DNA of 5,019 nt, taken from the IMG/VR virus record IMGVR_UViG_2695420600_000010; one strand, written 5' to 3'. Under the pieces are notes generated by a model. The model was not told the DNA's origin, ran no database searches, and saw only the letters and a program-made list of their open reading frames with translations. This DNA is from a virus. Its lineage: Duplodnaviria; Heunggongvirae; Uroviricota; Caudoviricetes. Both the position numbers and the translations under genes were made by a program. Shown here in pieces: positions 1 through 5,019 of the stretch; positions within the stretch are counted from its first letter, which is position 1, and the number at the start of each line of letters is the position of its first letter.

Positions 1-1
1 G

Positions 2-658
2 CAAAAGTGTAGCGGTATTAAGCGCAGCTATTTAGCTATTGGAGCTACTGATAACGCACTGGGTGAAAACTCCATTGTTCTGGGAGATAACGACACCGGA
101 TTTAGGCAAGATGGAGATGGTATTATTAGCTTCTATTCAAATGGTTCGCGCATCGGACATATTGATGAGTTAGGATTACATCTTTATAAAGATATTGAAT
201 CTAATGGCAGCAATTTTAGATTAAAAAGTAATTACCGCCACCACATTACATTCGCCAACGAAGACGGAAGAATTCGTATGTTTTTGTGGAAAGATAACGG
301 TGGTGATGGTGTTCATATTAATAACGGTTCAGATGGTGGTGGTGATTTCATTTTTAAAACAGATGGGGGATTTGCGCTGGGAAGTGGTGCGCAAGTTGCG
401 TCTAGTGGCGATATTTATGGTTCAGTGTGGGAAAACAACTGGTTAAGCACATGGCTGCATAATCATGTCGTTCGGGATATTCGTCTTGGCAGCATTGAAT
501 ATAAAAACGTATGGCGCGACTACGGCTTTGGCGATGCGTCAGGTTATGTTTTAACAGCCGCAATTAACAGCAATGCGGATGATATTGTCGACACTGTTGC
601 CAGAAGGCCAATTCAGAAATTGATTGGGGGAATATGGTACAACGTGGGGAGTGTTTAA
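2..658 (+). CDS. stf: Phage side tail fibre protein, C-terminal (variable) cassette; 5' end lies upstream of the window
   Basis: Frame 2 is open from position 2 to TAA at 656-658 (the ORF track reports only the Met-initiated part, 278..658). The translation contains ...[14 protein letters not shown]... and ends ...[18 protein letters not shown], paralogous to the minus-strand cassette ([16 protein letters not shown] ... [17 protein letters not shown]). Gly/Asn/Ser-rich composition typical of enterobacterial phage tail-fibre tips; the stop is 1 nt before the tfa start. Confidence 0.8.
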
Positions 659-659
659 G

Positions 660-1187
660 ATGATGCACCTGAAAAATATTAAGGCCGGGAATCCGAAAAC
701 ACCGGAACAATACCAGCTAACTAAAAAAGCGGGCGTGGTATGGCTCTTTTGCGAAGATGGCAAAAACTGGTATGAGGAACAAAAGAATTTTCAGCCAGAC
801 ACCATAAAAATTGCTTACGATGAGAACAACATCATCGTTGCTGTCAGTAAAGACGTTTCAACTATTAATCCTGAAGGGCTAAGCATAGTTGAAGTTCCTG
901 ATATTACGGCAAATCGTCACGCAGACAATAACGGAAAATGGATGTTTCTGGATGGTAAAGTAGTAAAGAGGGAATATACAGAACAGGAACTGCAACAACA
1001 GGCCGAATCACAAAAGGCCGCATTGCTTTCCGAAGCTGAATCAGTCATCCAGCCGCTGGAACGCGCTGTCAGGCTGAATATGGCAACAGACGAGGAACGC
1101 ACACGACTGGAAGCATGGGAACGCTACAGTGTTCTGGTCAGCCGTGTGGATACGGCAAATCCTGAATGGCCACAAAAGCCTGAATAA
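660..1187 (+). CDS. tfa: Tail fibre assembly protein (Tfa chaperone)
   Basis: ORF track 624..1187. Preferred start is ATG ATG at 660/663, preceded by GGGGAG (645-650), because the product then begins [22 protein letters not shown], aligning with the start of the paralogous minus-strand Tfa' ([22 protein letters not shown]). C-terminus ...[20 protein letters not shown] is the conserved Tfa tail also seen in the three tfa remnants downstream. Confidence 0.85.
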
Positions 1188-1192
1188 AAATT

Positions 1193-1212
1193 AAGGCCCG
1201 ATAGCGGGCCTT
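1193..1212. terminator. Candidate bidirectional intrinsic terminator between the convergent tfa genes
   Basis: Perfect 8-bp inverted repeat aaggcccg (1193-1200) / cgggcctt (1205-1212) with a 4-nt loop; A-run 1186-1190 on one side (a U-tract for the minus-strand transcript) and a T/C-rich run on the other. Sits between the stop of tfa (1187) and the stop of tfa' (1216). Confidence 0.45.
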
Positions 1213-1215
1213 CTC

Positions 1216-1749
1216 TCATTCTGGTTGTTCGGGAAACGTTACTGGCAGGCTGGAGGTGTCTGTGGATTCAACCTTCTGCGCATAGAGCATCCACTCGGTT
1301 AATTTTTGTTTATTCTCATCGGAAATGATGCCCAGCTGTAGCTGAGAGTCCCACAGCTGGGTTTTATCCCTGACGAGCTGCAGCAGGCTCTGCTTTTCAT
1401 TTTCCGCTTGTTGCCTTTGCTCTTCCTCGGTATAAGTTCGCTTTATCACCGCACCATCTTTGAACATCCAGTTGCCCGAAATATCAGCCCGGCGATTTGC
1501 TGTAATATCAGGCAACTCAACGACACTTAAACCTTCTGGATTAATTGCTGATACATCCTTGTCTATAGCAATAATTATTCCCTCAACTGTGTAAGCCAGT
1601 TTTATTGTATCCTCCTGAAAGTTTTTTAATTCCTCATGCCAATTTTTTCCATCTTCGGACCATAACCAGATAACATCAAAATTCTTTGTTAGCTGGTATT
1701 GTTCAACGGTTTTTGGATTACCTGCGACAATGTTTTTTAAATGCTGCAT
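1216..1749 (-). CDS. tfa: Tail fibre assembly protein, alternative (inverted-orientation) copy
   Basis: 177-aa ORF on the minus strand, [40 protein letters not shown]..., collinear paralogue of the plus-strand Tfa (shared N-terminus, ...[16 protein letters not shown]..., acidic/Gln-rich C-terminal part). Start ATG at 1747-1749 lies 2 nt after the stop of the stf' reading frame. Confidence 0.85.
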
Positions 1750-1751
1750 GA

Positions 1752-1898
1752 TTATACCTGCGATACGTTATACCATGTTCCGTTAATTAACTTTTGTATT
1801 GGTCTGAATACTGCCGGATCATCACCATCGACTTCACCGATAATACCAAGCCCCGTGATTACATGGCCTGATTTTTCATACATCACGCCTTTCTTCAT
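1752..1898 (-). CDS. C-terminal segment of the silent stf' cassette, separated from the main stf' frame by an in-frame TAG
   Basis: Same frame as the 1902..2513 ORF. Translation [48 protein letters not shown] ends with the same motif as the plus-strand Stf C-terminus ([18 protein letters not shown]). Not in the ORF track, presumably because it is short. Confidence 0.6.
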
Positions 1899-1901
1899 GG
1901 T

Positions 1902-2678
1902 CTAAACAACTCGTGTGCCAAGTCTGACATCTCTCACATAGCGGGAATCAAAGTTACCGTAATCCGAGGGATTAACACGTCCCGTAATATTTATGGTTTT
2001 ATTACTTTGAATGCTTCCGGAGACAAAGCGCATAACATGGACGTTATTAGCATAAACATCCAGATTACCATCGCCTTTTTGTTTAAAGCCCGTGTCATTA
2101 TCACCCAATACAATCGAATTACCGCCAAGAGCACTGGATGTTCCGATACCCAGTGCACCATTCAGTTGACCACCAGATAACGGCAGTGCACCAACATCTC
2201 CTGCTGAAGGTTTTCTGGTGGTGTAAAATTCGGACCAGTCGGCTTCAAAACCATAACCATCACGGGCTGAACGATAAAAAATACCGCCATTTTTATAATT
2301 AATCCGAAACTGAGCTGCAGGACAACTTCCTTCTCCCATATAAAAATGAATAATTAACGTTGATGCACCACTAATAGTTGCGTTATAGGCTCCGCTACTC
2401 CAGTTCCATCCAACTGCTTTATCATTCGCAACGGTGCTTCCTGTTTTCCCTAAGGCAAACGCACCAACATGACTTGCTTTTAATGTGATATCGGAGGAAC
2501 CATCAAAAGCCACATTGCTTATTTTCCTGGCAGTTTTTAATTTTGCAGCTGTAGAAGCATTGCCGGATAGTTCACCAGAAAGGCCACCGCTGAATGTTTG
2601 TCGATTAGTCCAGGTATTCGCTGTACTGAGTAACGGTATTTTCTCCCCGCTTGTGCCGAGTTCTCGTAAACCGAGGTT
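1902..2678 (-). CDS. stf: Silent alternative tail-fibre C-terminal cassette (stf'), no start codon of its own
   Basis: The minus-strand frame is open from the crossover site (a TAA at 2679-2681 on the minus strand closes it inside the site) to TAG at 1902-1904; the ORF track shows only the GTG-initiated part 1902..2513. Translation ...[28 protein letters not shown]...RYVRDVRLG is paralogous to the plus-strand Stf. The arrangement is that of the unexpressed S'v cassette of Mu G / P1 C / e14 P segments. Confidence 0.75.
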   Translation of the reverse strand, partial: NLGLRELGTSGEKIPLLSTANTWTNRQTFSGGLSGELSGNASTAAKLKTARKISNVAFDGSSDITLKASHVGAFALGKTGSTVANDKAVGWNWSSGAYNATISGASTLIIHFYMGEGSCPAAQFRINYKNGGIFYRSARDGYGFEADWSEFYTTRKPSAGDVGALPLSGGQLNGALGIGTSSALGGNSIVLGDNDTGFKQKGDGNLDVYANNVHVMRFVSGSIQSNKTINITGRVNPSDYGNFDSRYVRDVRLGTRVV

Positions 2679-2686
2679 TTAGATAA
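2661..2686. other. Crossover site for a Gin/Pin/Hin/Cin-family serine DNA invertase (gix/hix-like), right boundary of the invertible segment
   Basis: Sequence ttctcgtaaacc-ga-ggttttagataa is two imperfectly inverted 12-bp half-sites around a 2-bp core. It closely matches my recollection of gix (TTCCTGTAAACCGAGGTTTTGGATAA) and hixL (TTCTTGAAAACCAAGGTTTTTGATAA). It lies about 55 bp upstream of the invertase start and exactly where the silent stf' frame opens. Confidence 0.75.
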
Positions 2687-2740
2687 TGGCGGTTTCTGGC
2701 CTGCATGGCATGATTTGTGCTTTTGGACGGGAGATTCAGC

Positions 2741-2974
2741 GTGCTGATTGGCTATGTAAGGGTATCAACAAATGACCAGAATACAGACCTGCAACGAAAC
2801 GCTCTTGTTTGTGCAGGATATGAACAAATATTTGAAGATAAATTAAGCGGAACAAGGACAGGCCGACCTGGATTAAAACGTGCTTTAAAGCGCCTTCAAA
2901 AAGGTGACGCACTGGTTGTCTGAAAACTGGACTGACTGGGTCACTGTATGCGGCATCTTGTCGTGCTGGTGGTG
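2741..2974 (+). pseudogene. pin: Serine DNA invertase (Pin/Gin family), N-terminal catalytic region only; inactivated by two in-frame TGA codons and 3' truncation
   Basis: GTG start at 2741 preceded by GGGAGA (2729-2734). Translation MLIGYVRVSTNDQNTDLQRNALVCAGYEQIFEDKLSGTRTGRPGLKRALKRLQKGDALVV*KLD*LGHCMRHLVVLVVE is near-collinear with the Gin/Pin N-terminus as I recall it (MLIGYVRVSTNDQNTDLQRNALVCAGCEQIFEDKLSGTRTDRPGLKRALKRLQKGDTLVVWKLDRLGRSMKHLISLVGELRE). TGA at 2921-2923 replaces the Trp codon and TGA at 2933-2935 replaces the Arg codon. Invertase homology ends near 2974, where tfa homology begins. The ORF track entry 2717..2923 is this gene with an upstream GTG. Confidence 0.85.
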
Positions 2975-3087
2975 GAAGCCTAGAAAAAGTATCGGGTGTT
3001 GCTGAACCGTGTTGATACATCAACTGCACCTGATATTGAGTGGCCTACGAACCCTGTCAGGGAGTAATCATTGGGATTATGCCGCAG
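2974..3087 (+). repeat. tfa 3'-end remnant, copy A (last ~24 codons of a Tfa plus ~40 bp downstream), fused in frame to the invertase pseudogene
   Basis: 2974-3046 matches 4023-4095 (copy B) with 2 mismatches (59 bp identical at 2988-3046 / 4036-4094). 2989-3087 matches 4874-4972 (copy C) with about 6 mismatches. Encodes ...(A)[27 protein letters not shown], i.e. a Tfa C-terminus. Confidence 0.7.
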
Positions 3088-3115
3088 CACGTCTTAAGCA
3101 AGAACGTGCTGCGGT
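3081..3115. terminator. Stable hairpin at the left border of the methyltransferase cassette; weak terminator candidate
   Basis: 11-bp perfect inverted repeat ccgcagcacgt (3082-3092) / acgtgctgcgg (3104-3114) with an 11-nt loop cttaagcaaga. On the plus strand a T-run (3124-3130) follows only after an 8-9 nt spacer; on the minus strand it lies 8 nt past the methyltransferase stop but has no U-tract. Function is therefore uncertain. Confidence 0.3.
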
Positions 3116-3121
3116 TGGATG

Positions 3122-3790
3122 CTATTTTTTCCCTGAAGCGGAAAACATTACTACAGTACCTTGAACCTTGGTTTTAACATTCTCGAAATGCTCTGAGAGT
3201 ATATGTGTTAAGCCTTCTTCGGAATCTTTTGTGTTTGAAAAGATGCCTTTCTGATTGTAAATGCGCATCAGTTTTTGACCGAAGCTATTGTGCACAACTC
3301 CATCGCCAAGAATTGTGGCTCCGTATAGAGTTCCATCATCAGTTAAGGCCTGCGCCGCATTGCGTATTACACAGCTTTTTGTAGATATATTTCCAGGCAG
3401 GCAGTGAAGAAGGTAAAACATGGAAATGGAATCAAATTGACCATGTAACGCCGCGGGATAAGGTTCAAAAACATCATGGCTAATTTTATGTTTAATTTTT
3501 GATTCCCCAGCCCTTGTAGATGCCGCGTTCAGGCTAGCTTCGTTCAAATCCATTAAAGATATCAGACTACTCTCAGGTACGTGAGTAAGGTAAAACCCAG
3601 TTCCAACACCAATATCCAGATGGTTGTTACCTAAATGTTCCAGAAAGTGTGGAAGAAGGTGTTCCTTTGTAGGACATCCCCATGCAAGCCGATTTGATAC
3701 TCCCAAAACCCACCAGTCATAAAGCTTTAGGGTAAGTGGTGTGTAAATTTTAGCCCCATCATCTGTGTTTGTTTTCATTGATTTCACCAT
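3122..3790 (-). CDS. Class I (Rossmann-fold) SAM-dependent methyltransferase, substrate unknown
   Basis: 222-aa ORF. Contains the glycine-rich SAM-binding motif I (HLDIGVGTGFY), an acidic residue one beta-strand later (SLMDLNEASL), and further Rossmann-type motifs (FDSISMFYLLHC, DDGTLYGATI). I find no (D/N/S)PP(Y/F/W) or PCQ motif, so an N6/N4/C5 DNA methyltransferase is unlikely. An alternative start is the ATG at 3776-3778 (MKTNTDDG...), which has a GGTGA Shine-Dalgarno 5 nt upstream; the first ATG (3788-3790) has none. Confidence 0.8.
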   Translation of the reverse strand: MVKSMKTNTDDGAKIYTPLTLKLYDWWVLGVSNRLAWGCPTKEHLLPHFLEHLGNNHLDIGVGTGFYLTHVPESSLISLMDLNEASLNAASTRAGESKIKHKISHDVFEPYPAALHGQFDSISMFYLLHCLPGNISTKSCVIRNAAQALTDDGTLYGATILGDGVVHNSFGQKLMRIYNQKGIFSNTKDSEEGLTHILSEHFENVKTKVQGTVVMFSASGKK

Positions 3791-3847
3791 GTTATAGTTT
3801 TATTTGTGAATTAAATCAATTATGGCGATGAATTACAAGGGGTTAAA
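3791..3847 (-). promoter_or_regulatory. Candidate sigma70-type promoter(s) for the methyltransferase gene
   Basis: On the minus strand: TTTAAC (plus 3842-3847), 17-bp spacer, CATAAT (plus 3819-3824), about 35 nt upstream of the ATG; or TTGATT (3814-3819), 17 bp, TATAAC (3791-3796), abutting the first ATG. Hexamer matching by eye only. Confidence 0.25.
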
Positions 3848-3882
3848 TGCTGCCGCAGCATAGCGATATTGAAATAGCCTAG

Positions 3883-4116
3883 TATGCTTCGATACAGCAG
3901 GAGCCGAATGGCTGGAAGACCGTCACCACACAGTTCTACATCCAGGAATTCAGTGAGCATATTGCGCCACTTCAGGATGCTGTAGATCTGGAGATCGCAA
4001 CGGAGGAAGAAAACTCGTTGCTGGAAGCCTGGAAGAAGTATCGGGTGTTGCTGAACCGTGTTGATACATCAACTGCACCTGATATTGAGTGGCCGGAAGA
4101 ACCAGACACAATGTAA
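3883..4116 (+). pseudogene. tfa: Tail fibre assembly protein, 3' fragment (copy B): about 77 C-terminal codons, no start or N-terminal half
   Basis: Frame 1 after TAG at 3880-3882 translates [77 protein letters not shown]. This is collinear with the C-terminus of the intact plus-strand Tfa (...[42 protein letters not shown]...). Too short and start-less to appear in the ORF track. Confidence 0.75.
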
Positions 4117-4242
4117 GGCAGTATGACTTTCCGTGAGACAGATGCTGGCCAACGTGGGATATTTAACGCGGGTTAACATCGTTGTCAGAGCCGCATGGGT
4201 GAGCTGTTGCTACACCCCGGTATTTCCACCACGGAGGCCAGC

Positions 4243-4832
4243 ATGAACAACAATAACACATTGTACGTCGGGTTAGATGTTCACAAAGAATCGATTACTG
4301 TCGCTTATGCTATCAATTCAGAACCTGTTGAACTGATGGGTAAAATTGGCACATCACCTACTGATATTCAGAATCTTTGTAAACGTCTCAGGTCAAAGTC
4401 ATCGCAGGTCAGTATCGTTTATGAAGCGGGGCCCTGTGGTTATGGACTTTATCGTCGGCTGGTGAAATCCGGTTTTGACTGCATGGTCTGCGCCCCCTCA
4501 CTTATCCCGAAAAAACCGGGGGAGCGGGTTAAAACCGATCGCCGTGATGCCATCAGACTTGTGCGTTCACTGCGTGCAGGAGATCTTTCTGCTGTCTACG
4601 TACCCGGCATTGAAGATGAGGCATTCCGGGATTTGGCCCGGGCATGGGCATCTGCCCGCGATGATTTACGGCATGCAAGGCAACGTCTGAAATCGTTTCT
4701 TCTGGTTCATGGGGTCCATTATGTCGGGCGAGCAGATTGGGGCCCTGCACACCGACGCTGGCTCAGCAAATACTCATTCGAAAGTCCCTGGCGACAATTA
4801 GCTTTTGACGAACACCGTCGTACAATAGAAGA
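4243..4832 (+). CDS. IS110-family (DEDD) transposase, N-terminal ~196 aa; 3' part lost in the scaffold gap
   Basis: ORF track 4195..4890. Preferred start ATG 4243 with GGAGG (4233-4237) 5 nt upstream. MNNNNTLYVGLDVHKESITVAYA..., ...SIVYEAGPCGYGLYRRL..., ...RVKTDRRDAIRLVRSLRAGDL... reproduce the N-terminal DEDD catalytic-domain signatures of IS110/IS1111-family transposases. The reading frame runs into the N-run at 4833. Confidence 0.85.
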
Positions 4833-4873
4833 NNNNNNNNNNNNNNNNNNNNNNNNNNNNNNNNNNNNNNNNN
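4833..4873. other. Assembly/scaffold gap (41 N)
   Basis: Uninterrupted run of n. The flanks are not continuous: IS110 transposase on the left, tfa remnant on the right. Confidence 0.95.
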
Positions 4874-4971
4874 ATATCGGGTATTGTTGAATCGTGTTGA
4901 TACATCAACTGCACCTGATATTGAGTGGCCTGCAAATCCTGTCAGGGAGTAATCATTGGGATTATGCCGCA
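4874..4971 (+). repeat. tfa 3'-end remnant, copy C, truncated on the left by the gap and on the right by IS1
   Basis: 4874-4972 aligns to 2989-3087 (copy A) with about 6 mismatches, including the downstream non-coding stretch cctgtcagggagtaatcattgggattatgccgcag. Encodes ...IGYC*-frame Tfa tail ...[19 protein letters not shown]. Confidence 0.7.
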
Positions 4972-5019
4972 GGTGATGCTGCCAACTTACTGATTTAGTG
5001 TATGATGGTGTTTTTGAGG
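4972..5019 (+). mobile_element. IS1 left end (IRL and first 48 bp), continuing beyond the window
   Basis: ggtgatgctgccaacttactgatttagtgtatgatggtgtttttgagg matches the IS1 left terminus as I recall it (GGTGATGCTGCCAACTTACTGAT... IRL followed by the insA leader). The element runs off the window, so insA/insB and any target duplication are not visible. Confidence 0.9.

Follow-up and report, generated by a model that had tools for sequence, protein, structure and literature searches.

The type of locus analysed here has already been described in prophage Phi4 of E. coli EC958 (Forde et al. 2014, PMC4134206), which carries the same two 26-bp crossover sites and an invertase described as 'severely truncated'. 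PacBio reads from one EC958 culture were assembled into both orientations of the Phi4 segment, and the authors proposed that the invertase of Phi1 acts in trans; for the Phi1 segment, about half of the reads from the culture supported each orientation (PMC4134206). An experimental demonstration of inversion in trans between cryptic prophages comes from E. coli K-12, where PinQ inverts e14 (PMC12529663). In organisation, the e14 P segment resembles the locus studied here: it is an stf/tfa segment of a cryptic prophage, and a Pin-family enzyme from another locus of the genome can invert it, but its own pin gene (pinE) is intact. In the G segment of Mu, S/U and U'/S' lie between inverted 26-bp gix sites, and the invertase gene is located just beyond the right site, an arrangement that recurs here. 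Tominaga et al. are said to have reported, in 1991, a B segment in Shigella boydii with a functional pinB, a G-segment-like tail-fibre region in the chromosome. Likened by description, this segment is likewise an invertible tail-fibre region of a Shigella chromosome, but it differs from our locus in its functional invertase.

We analysed a 5,019-nt stretch of DNA (the window). It shares 99.6-99.9% identity with a set of chromosomes, among them those of S. sonnei 391324 and 830292. The locus comprises the greater part of an invertible tail-fibre segment of the Mu/P1/e14 type and lies in a decayed prophage of the Shigella sonnei type. Positions 33-2968 very probably represent the right-hand ~90% of a Gin/Pin/Cin-type invertible segment together with an invertase stub, in an orphaned state. 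According to the annotation of relatives, the prophage context is a lambdoid tail end with gpJ, Lom and Stf, which adjoins ompW and trpA; the structural genes of the prophage are gone in many of these relatives. The window carries IS630, ISSso6 and IS1, and IS elements flank it at either side. The left flank was rebuilt from relatives, which were located via the Tfa protein.

By its sites, its truncated invertase-tfa fusion followed by a SAM methyltransferase, and its ompW/trp neighbourhood, the locus belongs to the EC958 Phi4 type of orphan segments. The annotation of ST131 locus L002 and of loci L028 and L029 agrees with the fusion and the methyltransferase, and the crossover sites are identical to those of Phi4, the right one to Phi4_3prime and the left one, as compared in relatives, to Phi4_5prime. 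The likeness extends to the prophage type and to inversion despite a dead invertase, and positions 1918-4094 of the window are 98.6% identical to ST131 locus L002. In contrast, the DNA from position 33 to 1917, with cassette A, the two tfa genes and the end of stf' that encodes its C-terminus, represents another allele set than that of ST131, and these alleles are common to P2-like prophages, Mu-like prophages and 90-100 kb plasmids. Further differences are in the length of the segment (~2.9 kb in the window copy versus 3.1 kb in Phi4) and in the additional lesions of the window copy, in which cassette A is interrupted by IS630 and cassette B by a nonsense codon, and which also carries ISSso6 and IS1.

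DNA matches of the window include Mu U, U', S' and gin, and the H and G genes of P2-like phages. The similarity to Mu is high in the invertase gene, where 185 of the first 191 nt (positions 2741-2931; 97%) are identical to gin, and lower in U, U' and part of S' (~84% identity in DNA). However, Mu is a transposable myovirus with a full-length Gin (193 aa), whereas the present locus is a lambdoid remnant with a stub of ~76 codons, and cassette A is unrelated to Mu S in DNA. An earlier note, made from the sequence of the window, assigned the locus to the architecture shared by Mu G, P1 C and e14 P, and this assignment was right; a comparison with close relatives shows precise inversion at the 26-bp sites. 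The layout described there, stf-tfa on the plus strand, tfa'-stf' on the minus strand, a gix-like site and the start of a Gin/Pin-like gene, also holds when open reading frames and translations are inspected (Table 1). The HMM check yielded Pfam matches to gp37_trimer, gp37_C, Caudo_TAP (twice) and Resolvase, with which the phage matches agree. The layout, the reading frames through the site and the Pfam matches all point to mirror-image cassettes with cognate chaperones, either of which can be connected in frame with a constant 5' part; in relatives, each cassette does occur fused to this part, in genes of 918 aa and 875 aa. Thus, the family, the layout and the site proposed in the earlier note stand, whereas a working switch, the position of the left site and an intact invertase do not.

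Table 1. Features of the invertible tail-fibre locus and its right flank, in window coordinates
Feature	Position	Strand	Remarks
IS630 right end	1..32	+	last 12 nt of the transposase ORF (TAG at 10-12) and terminal repeat
Cassette A, variable C-terminal tail fibre (stf)	33..658	+	TAA at 656-658; Pfam gp37_trimer, 1.2e-7
tfa A, tail-fibre assembly chaperone of cassette A, 175 aa	660..1187	+	Pfam Caudo_TAP, 7.9e-37
G+C-rich hairpin between the convergent tfa genes	1193..1212		terminator-like; 8-bp stem with 6 GC pairs
tfa' B, chaperone of cassette B, 177 aa	1216..1749	-	Pfam Caudo_TAP, 4.8e-34
Cassette B, variable tail fibre (stf')	1752..2660	-	promoterless in this orientation; Pfam gp37_C, 9.6e-8
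Right crossover site (gix/pix-type)	2661..2686		TTCTCGTAAACCGAGGTTTTAGATAA; as half-sites, TTCTCGTAAACC-GA-GGTTTTAGATAA
Site-invertase spacer	2687..2740	+	corresponds to the Mu gixR-gin leader; 41/54 identical to Mu
Gin/Pin-type serine invertase remnant	2741..2968	+	GTG start; ~76 of ~193 codons
tfa 3' fragment, fused in frame to the stub	2969..3067	+	TGG->TAG at 2981-2983; from DNA alignment

The stf reading frame passes through the right crossover site (..LGL|RE..). This 26-bp gix/hix-like site, which the earlier note had located correctly, occurs once in the window compared to zero occurrences expected from 200 shuffles, matches Mu gixR at 23 of 26 positions, and is, as its reverse complement, identical to the Phi4_3prime site of EC958. 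The left site was found in IS-free relatives (positions 9086-9111 of locus L006), 231-256 nt upstream of the equivalent of window base 1, with a matching TC/GA core; if retained in the source genome, it would read TTATCGAATACCTCGGTTTACAGGAA and lie ~260 nt upstream of the IS630 insertion point. Because the left site differs from the right one at 4 of 26 positions, a search for exact inverted copies misses it. A search of loci L001 and L002 for an inverted copy of the right site with up to three mismatches found no partner; the left site was located with an inverted-repeat finder and a core-anchored pattern. The distance of 0.4-0.5 kb upstream of position 1 that had been predicted for it was an overestimate for IS-free relatives, and in the present genome IS630 intervenes. 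The left site and the constant part of stf both fall outside the window. In six related chromosomes (L005, L007-L009, L011 and L014), the left site was removed by an IS3-family element and a deletion.

Neither fibre cassette is intact in this genome, A being broken by IS630 and B by a premature TAG. The IS630 target inside the plus-strand stf cassette is CTAG/TA, with the junction at 32/33. In 200 E. coli genomes, loci of IS630-family transposases match positions 1-34 at 100% identity, the transposase CDS of Nissle 1917 ends at the equivalent of window position 12, and all relatives align to the window from position 33 onward only. The first 32 nt therefore belong to the IS630 right end and not to stf, which had been read from position 1; a mosaic junction within stf, considered as another explanation of these nucleotides, was rejected on the same grounds. 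Cassette A is severed by IS630 from its own 5' part. In relatives without the interruption, the place it occupies is connected to the constant part of stf, and in two S. sonnei loci (L006 and L013) it forms the C-terminus of an intact 918-aa Stf. Copies of the cassette with 97-99% identity are also found in prophages of the P2-like and Mu-like kinds and on 90-100 kb plasmids.

In cassette B, a CAG->TAG change at positions 1902-1904 creates an in-frame nonsense codon 49 codons ahead of the natural end. We considered the possibility that this TAG is a natural gene boundary and rejected it, since the frame runs on into the conserved end, and gpH of Yersinia phage L-413C, the C-terminus of which has 85% amino-acid identity to cassette B, has Gln (Q) at the aligned residue. 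In orientation-B S. sonnei genomes, the cassette is split into genes of 875 aa and 48 aa. The blocks that were proposed to be shared by the two Stf cassettes, one led by G(E/G) and the other being RPIQKLI(G/N)G(I/T)WYNV, are found in both of them. The accompanying Tfa proteins are 55% identical overall, alike over residues 1-120 and divergent thereafter, in agreement with the suggestion that they differ mainly in their C-terminal parts; the exact Tfa A protein is encoded in many S. sonnei chromosomes. The hairpin between the two tfa genes is likely to be a terminator, judging from its match to the consensus.

A Pin-family invertase gene was expected at position 2741. The start of the gene is indeed Gin/Pin-like and has a Resolvase domain; however, the gene is truncated, contains stops, and is fused to tfa at ~2969. 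It covers positions 2-69 of the 145 positions of the Pfam Resolvase profile, the HTH is absent, and two TGA codons interrupt the frame (2921-2923, codon 61, and 2933-2935, codon 65). Thus, the gene adjacent to the site falls short of a full-length serine invertase, i.e., a protein of ~190 aa with a catalytic domain, helix E and a C-terminal HTH; the missing C-terminal part (~117 codons) includes what aligns with the C-terminal half of full-length Gin, where helix E and the DNA-binding domain of Gin/Hin lie. The tfa fragment at 2969-3067 marks the deletion that took away the rest of the invertase, and other tfa 3' fragments that align to it are located at 3990-4116 and 4874-4952. The invertase-tfa fusion is likewise annotated in E. 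coli ETEC and ST131, and the exact 60-aa stub is widespread. The stub is predicted to still span the region of the Hin/Gin-type Fis enhancers, given the position of the Hin enhancer (~100 bp from hixL) and the 97% identity to Mu gin. This placement takes the Fis-dependent recombinational enhancer of Gin to lie in cis, within the 5' part of its gene.

In the intact ancestor, a serine invertase together with host Fis would have recombined two inverted 26-bp sites at the GA/TC core, one of them inside stf and the other beside the invertase gene, and would thereby have flipped ~2.9 kb. Each flip would join the constant N-terminal part of Stf to one of two C-terminal receptor-binding cassettes, each then followed by its own Tfa. 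The segment is now orphaned because a deletion removed the remainder of the invertase, linking its codon ~76 with the 3' end of a tfa gene, and nonsense codons arose after that.

We examined orientation polymorphism in four S. sonnei genomes. Two of them (L006 and L013) have the window orientation, whereas in the other two (L010 and L012) the segment is inverted, with the breakpoint at window positions 2666-2690. Between the two pairs, the outer half-sites are exchanged, the inner ones are kept, and the switch is at the 2-bp core inside the 26-bp site; this comparison of relatives shows exchange at the central dinucleotide. Both orientations are present among S. sonnei and E. coli ST131, and the invertase is dead in every copy. 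The tfa|IS1 junction is identical in L006, L010, L012 and the window; being common to both orientations, it implies that the flip postdates the IS1 insertion and that a trans-acting activity existed in the lineage. A synthetic orientation-B junction (600 nt) was matched over at least 80% of its length in 226 E. coli genomes, those listed all being 100% identical over 600 nt, and the orientation-A junction was matched in 302 genomes. The orientation-B matches in ST131 could have been attributed to prophage Phi1; this was rejected because their positions are at Phi4 (~1.48 Mb) and the flipped gene order was verified directly with Swedish strains 4/0 and 4/1-1. In these two strains, which have related names, the flip is the sole difference.

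Orientation differences may also result from RecA-dependent homologous recombination between inverted repeats, and the sites are indeed embedded in imperfect inverted repeats, which are short (32 nt in L002, 95 nt in L001). However, the exchange maps between two 12-bp half-sites, which differ on both sides, and the homology in S. sonnei and ST131 is just ~32-36 bp with mismatches, which is short for RecA-dependent exchange. The frequency is also higher than expected from this process, with about half of the EC958 Phi1 reads in each orientation and Phi4 represented by a separate alternative contig (PMC4134206); we regard this explanation as highly improbable. With its own invertase gene reduced to a stub, the segment could be inverted only by an enzyme that the cell makes from another gene. 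By analogy to the proposal for EC958 Phi4, we infer that inversion occurs in trans, through an invertase whose gene lies outside this locus. Continued flipping of this particular copy depends on the left site beyond IS630 and on an intact Pin-family invertase in the cell.

These dependencies bear on whether the copy in the source strain is a frozen fossil, i.e., whether its left site was lost through an IS-mediated deletion past IS630, or a compatible invertase is absent. We consider this a serious possibility, although somewhat short of an even chance. The loss of the left site in the six related loci shows that such events occur, IS elements are located at both ends of the window, and a plasmid search for a full-length gene of the Gin type found it in 11 Shigella plasmids, of which the one listed is from S. 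dysenteriae and none is tied to S. sonnei, so that the search yielded no trans-acting invertase for this species. On the other hand, the IS630 of the window is at position 32 whereas the deletion-associated IS in those genomes is at 370, a simple IS630 insertion would keep the left site ~1.4 kb upstream, and the derived IS1 junction occurs in both orientations. The opposite extreme, an autonomous host-range switch in which the adjacent invertase flips the segment and virions or fibres with two receptor specificities are produced, was the reading of the earlier note. Its canonical architecture and site are in place, and clear phage homologues exist for the two cassettes and the two chaperones; however, the invertase lacks its C-terminal portion and contains in-frame stops, IS630 cuts cassette A, a nonsense codon interrupts cassette B, and the loss of prophage structural genes in many relatives points in the same direction. 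For this copy the claim is refuted, and the chance that such a switch works here is close to nil: the output of the switch is lost in this genome, which makes it non-functional in host-range switching.

A domesticated element, one orientation of which yields a truncated or chimeric Stf that is useful to the host, e.g., through a block of a phage receptor like that by StfE2, would be another potential outcome. There is a precedent in E. coli K-12, where StfE2 is produced after PinQ-driven inversion of e14 (PMC12529663), and conservation of the segment, its sites and the invertase gene 5' part is 98-99% across S. sonnei, ETEC and ST131, amid heavy decay of the surroundings. However, both cassettes are disrupted in this genome, and half of the segment is deleted in several related chromosomes, which argues against selection; hence, domestication by analogy to StfE2 appears quite unlikely. 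A similarly low probability is assigned to the more specific suggestion that the orphan segment continues to invert in S. sonnei through an invertase from another locus and is kept because one orientation gives a truncated or chimeric Stf product with a host function (e.g., receptor-blocking phage defence), as in the case of PinQ and StfE2. The orphaned segment described above remains our preferred reading of the locus.

The locus adds one more copy of a phage host-range switch that is already well understood, and little turns on it; for the homologous ST131 prophage of E. coli, the orphaned, trans-inverted state is already on record. It should be noted that such segments cause assembly breaks and spurious alternative contigs in Shigella and E. 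coli genomes, and that they give rise to misannotated 'tail fibre' and 'recombinase' fragments. The orientation of the segment and its IS insertions (IS630, ISSso6, IS1 and the IS3-family element) could serve as markers of S. sonnei lineages. The locus is a clear natural case of a recombination substrate that outlives its own recombinase.

The arrangement proposed in the earlier note, stf-tfa on the plus strand, then tfa'-stf' on the minus strand, a 26-bp site and an invertase start, was recovered from six-frame ORFs and translations of the window and agrees with the Pfam matches.

Features of the invertible segment and its right flank in window coordinates
Feature	Position	Strand	Details
Foreign DNA (IS630 end)	1-32		
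stf cassette A, C-terminal part of tail-fibre gene	33-658	+	TAA 656-658; Pfam gp37_trimer 1.2e-7
tfa A, 175-aa chaperone gene	660-1187	+	Pfam Caudo_TAP 7.9e-37
G+C-rich hairpin	1193-1212		
tfa' B, 177-aa chaperone gene	1216-1749	-	Pfam Caudo_TAP 4.8e-34
stf' cassette B, second tail-fibre C-terminal cassette	1752-2660	-	Pfam gp37_C 9.6e-8
Right site, 26-bp TTCTCGTAAACCGAGGTTTTAGATAA	2661-2686		
Serine invertase gene start	from 2741	+	Pfam Resolvase 2.9e-15

The profile check of the four segment proteins returned tail-fibre or assembly identities (gp37_trimer, gp37_C and Caudo_TAP twice), and the motif blocks quoted earlier were found in the translations of both cassettes. The right site occurs once in the window, with none expected by chance in shuffled sequences, and the stf reading frame passes through it (..IEYLGL/RELG..). 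It is identical to Mu gixR at 23 of 26 positions which, with the Pfam identities, upholds the assignment to the Gin/Pin-type family. The Tfa proteins do diverge toward the C-terminus, as had been claimed: they are 55% identical overall, alike over residues 1-120 and divergent beyond.

The claim of two receptor specificities fails as far as working products in this genome are concerned, with IS630 in cassette A and a TAG in cassette B. The window start, taken earlier as stf, is an IS630 end. In 200 E. coli genomes, IS630-family elements have an end that positions 1-34 match at 100%; the IS630 transposase CDS of E. coli Nissle 1917 stops at the equivalent of window 12, and the window has TAG at 10-12. 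The alignment of relatives to the window begins only at base 33; their uninterrupted sequence there reads ..GGTC/TAGCTATTGG.. Because an IS630 end is present and the match of every relative starts at base 33, cassette A is cut in two by an IS630 that went in at a CTAG/TA target. In cassette B, an in-frame TAG at 1902-1904 lies 49 codons short of the conserved C-terminal end; gpH of Yersinia phage L-413C (85% identical to cassette B) has Gln at the aligned position.

The gene beside the site is of the predicted Pin family (97% identical to Mu gin over its first 191 nt), but it is not intact. Codons 1-64 match Mu gin at 185 of 191 nt; in-frame TGA codons are found at codon 61 (2921-2923) and codon 65 (2933-2935), and from ~2969 both translation and DNA alignment show invertase sequence giving way to the 3' end of a tfa gene. 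Approximately 117 C-terminal residues are absent in alignment with full-length Gin-type proteins, and the Resolvase match spans only profile positions 2-69 of 145. The same stub is present in three close relatives (L006, L010 and L012). S. sonnei relative L006 and ST131 locus L002 also have the codon-61 TGA; ETEC 504239 (L001, ~7326-7328) has TGG there, yet carries the same codon-65 stop and tfa fusion. Since L001 combines these states, the deletion and fusion appear older than the W61 stop.

Gin and Hin act as invertase dimers, one at each 26-bp site, that exchange strands through subunit rotation once a Fis-bound enhancer has activated the complex. That enhancer is located within the invertase gene near its 5' end, at a distance of ~100 bp from the site. 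The 5' region of the stub is kept at 97% identity to Mu gin, and it is plausible that the Fis enhancer is retained.

The left site had been placed 0.4-0.5 kb upstream of the window, which proved too far. In the IS-free locus L006 it is TTATCGAATACC-TC-GGTTTACAGGAA at 9086-9111, within an intact 918-aa stf, 231-256 nt upstream of the equivalent of window base 1, and the two cores are 2,916 bp apart. A search of L001 and L002 for an inverted copy of the right site, allowing up to 3 mismatches, did not detect the left site, because the two sites differ at 4 of 26 positions; their cores match. In the source genome, IS630 (~1.1 kb) lies between the window and the left-site position known from relatives. 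Six relatives (L005, L007-L009, L011 and L014) have lost the left site through an IS3-family element and a deletion reaching the lysis genes. There (locus positions ~8490-9646 and 9711 onward), the element abuts cassette A at window-equivalent 370, and the DNA upstream of it is the prophage lysis region. Because all tail genes, the constant stf part and the left site are deleted, the segment in these six loci is locked permanently.

Orientation was compared in the four close-relative chromosomes with both sites. The window's orientation is that of L006 and L013; in L010 and L012 the segment is inverted relative to its flanks, and the alignment breaks at window 2666-2690.

Half-sites at the two junctions in each orientation
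Orientation	stf-side	invertase-side
A (L006, L013)	TTATCGAATACC TC GGTTTACAGGAA	TTCTCGTAAACC GA GGTTTTAGATAA
B (L010, L012)	TTCTCGTAAACC GA GGTATTCGATAA	TTATCTAAAACC TC GGTTTACAGGAA

Between A and B, the outer half-sites are exchanged and the inner half-sites remain with the segment, a pattern that conservative exchange at the central dinucleotide would be expected to produce; on these junctions, past inversions in very close relatives were demonstrably site-specific. The tfa/IS1 junction is identical in L006, L010, L012 and the window, so the flip was later than the IS1 insertion, in a lineage with the adjacent invertase already dead. ST131 and ETEC strains share the stub, tfa fragment and methyltransferase at 98.6-99.1% identity. 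A synthetic orientation-B junction of 600 nt, built from L002, had matches covering 80% or more of its length in 226 E. coli genomes, and those listed were all 100% over the full 600 nt; the orientation-A junction matched in 302 E. coli genomes. The locus is shared by Swedish isolates 4/0 and 4/1-1, one having the order of the two Tfa genes and cassettes reversed relative to the other.

Window 33-1787 (cassette A, the tfa pair and the stf' end) shares 92-95% identity with the invertible segments found in a P2-like prophage (L003) and the Mu-like prophage of E24377A (L004), both with full-length invertases; cassette A alone has 97-99% identity on 90-100 kb plasmids, and ST131 Phi4 matches the window only from 1918 rightward. 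This pattern reads as the familiar modular exchange of tail-fibre cassettes between unrelated phages. Cassette B with tfa' (1752-2601, minus strand) is ~85% identical, in DNA and protein, to the gpH receptor-binding end and gpG of L-413C, a Y. pestis-typing phage, with a similar match to other P2-like phages; because of this likeness, one specificity of the ancestral switch is assigned to the P2/L-413C type.

Among complete E. coli genomes, coverage of the window does not exceed 52%. Chromosomes of 4.8-5.0 Mb, reached through the exact Tfa A protein, are 99.6-99.9% identical to the window; two of them are S. sonnei 391324 (CP179997) and 830292 (CP179990). The locus forms the tail end of a lambdoid prophage with J, Lom and Stf, beside a truncated ompW and beside trpA. 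The mobile elements IS630, ISSso6 (IS110-family) and IS1 are consistent with an S. sonnei origin, and we infer that S. sonnei is the source. The last 48 nt (4972-5019) are an IS1 terminus, and the IS1 transposase gene adjoins there in L010; since both ends are IS termini (IS630 left, IS1 right), the window probably equals one complete contig from a short-read assembly that broke at repeats.

A 222-aa class I SAM-dependent methyltransferase gene (3122-3790, minus strand; Pfam Methyltransf_12/23/25) lies between tfa 3' fragments 2969-3067 and 3940-4116 at the prophage end, an arrangement also kept in ETEC and ST131; it looks like cargo inserted via recombination between tfa ends. Rfam RF02111 'IS009' matches at full length at 3870-4073 (plus strand; 130 bits, gathering score 117), overlapping both the second tfa fragment and the sequence upstream of it. 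After this fragment, ending ..EWPEEPDTM-stop, comes the 5' part of ISSso6 (~4099-4832; Pfam DEDD_Tnp_IS110), which E. coli annotation calls an IS110-family 'RNA-guided transposase'. A run of 41 N (4833-4873) precedes a second copy of the tfa 3' end (4874-4952; ..EWPANPVRE-stop), 100% identical to S. sonnei relatives. The ~57 nt of tfa sequence on both sides of the ISSso6 part may reflect target-specific insertion, inter-prophage recombination, or a scaffolding or masking artefact.

It should be noted that this type of locus has already been described, as prophage Phi4 of E. coli EC958 (Forde et al. 2014; PMC4134206). The Phi4 segment, 3,106 bp long, has TTATCGAATACCTCGGTTTACAGGAA and TTATCTAAAACCTCGGTTTACGAGAA as crossover sites, the latter being the reverse complement of window 2661-2686; PacBio reads from a single culture assembled into an alternative-orientation contig (PMC4134206). 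In E. coli O25b:H4, chromosome CP015085.1 has the orientation-A junction and a 32.8-kb record of the same strain name, CP015087.1, has orientation B, which resembles the 'spurious alternative-allele contig' phenomenon described in EC958. The Phi4 invertase is 'severely truncated', and its authors inferred inversion in trans, possibly via the invertase of prophage Phi1, with near-identical sites (PMC4134206); experimental proof of trans inversion of a cryptic-prophage tail-fibre segment exists for PinQ acting on e14 (PMC12529663). Inversion at the present locus would likewise have been catalysed in trans. In this genome, the locus does not work as a switch: what remains is an orphaned substrate, with its own invertase dead and both outputs broken.
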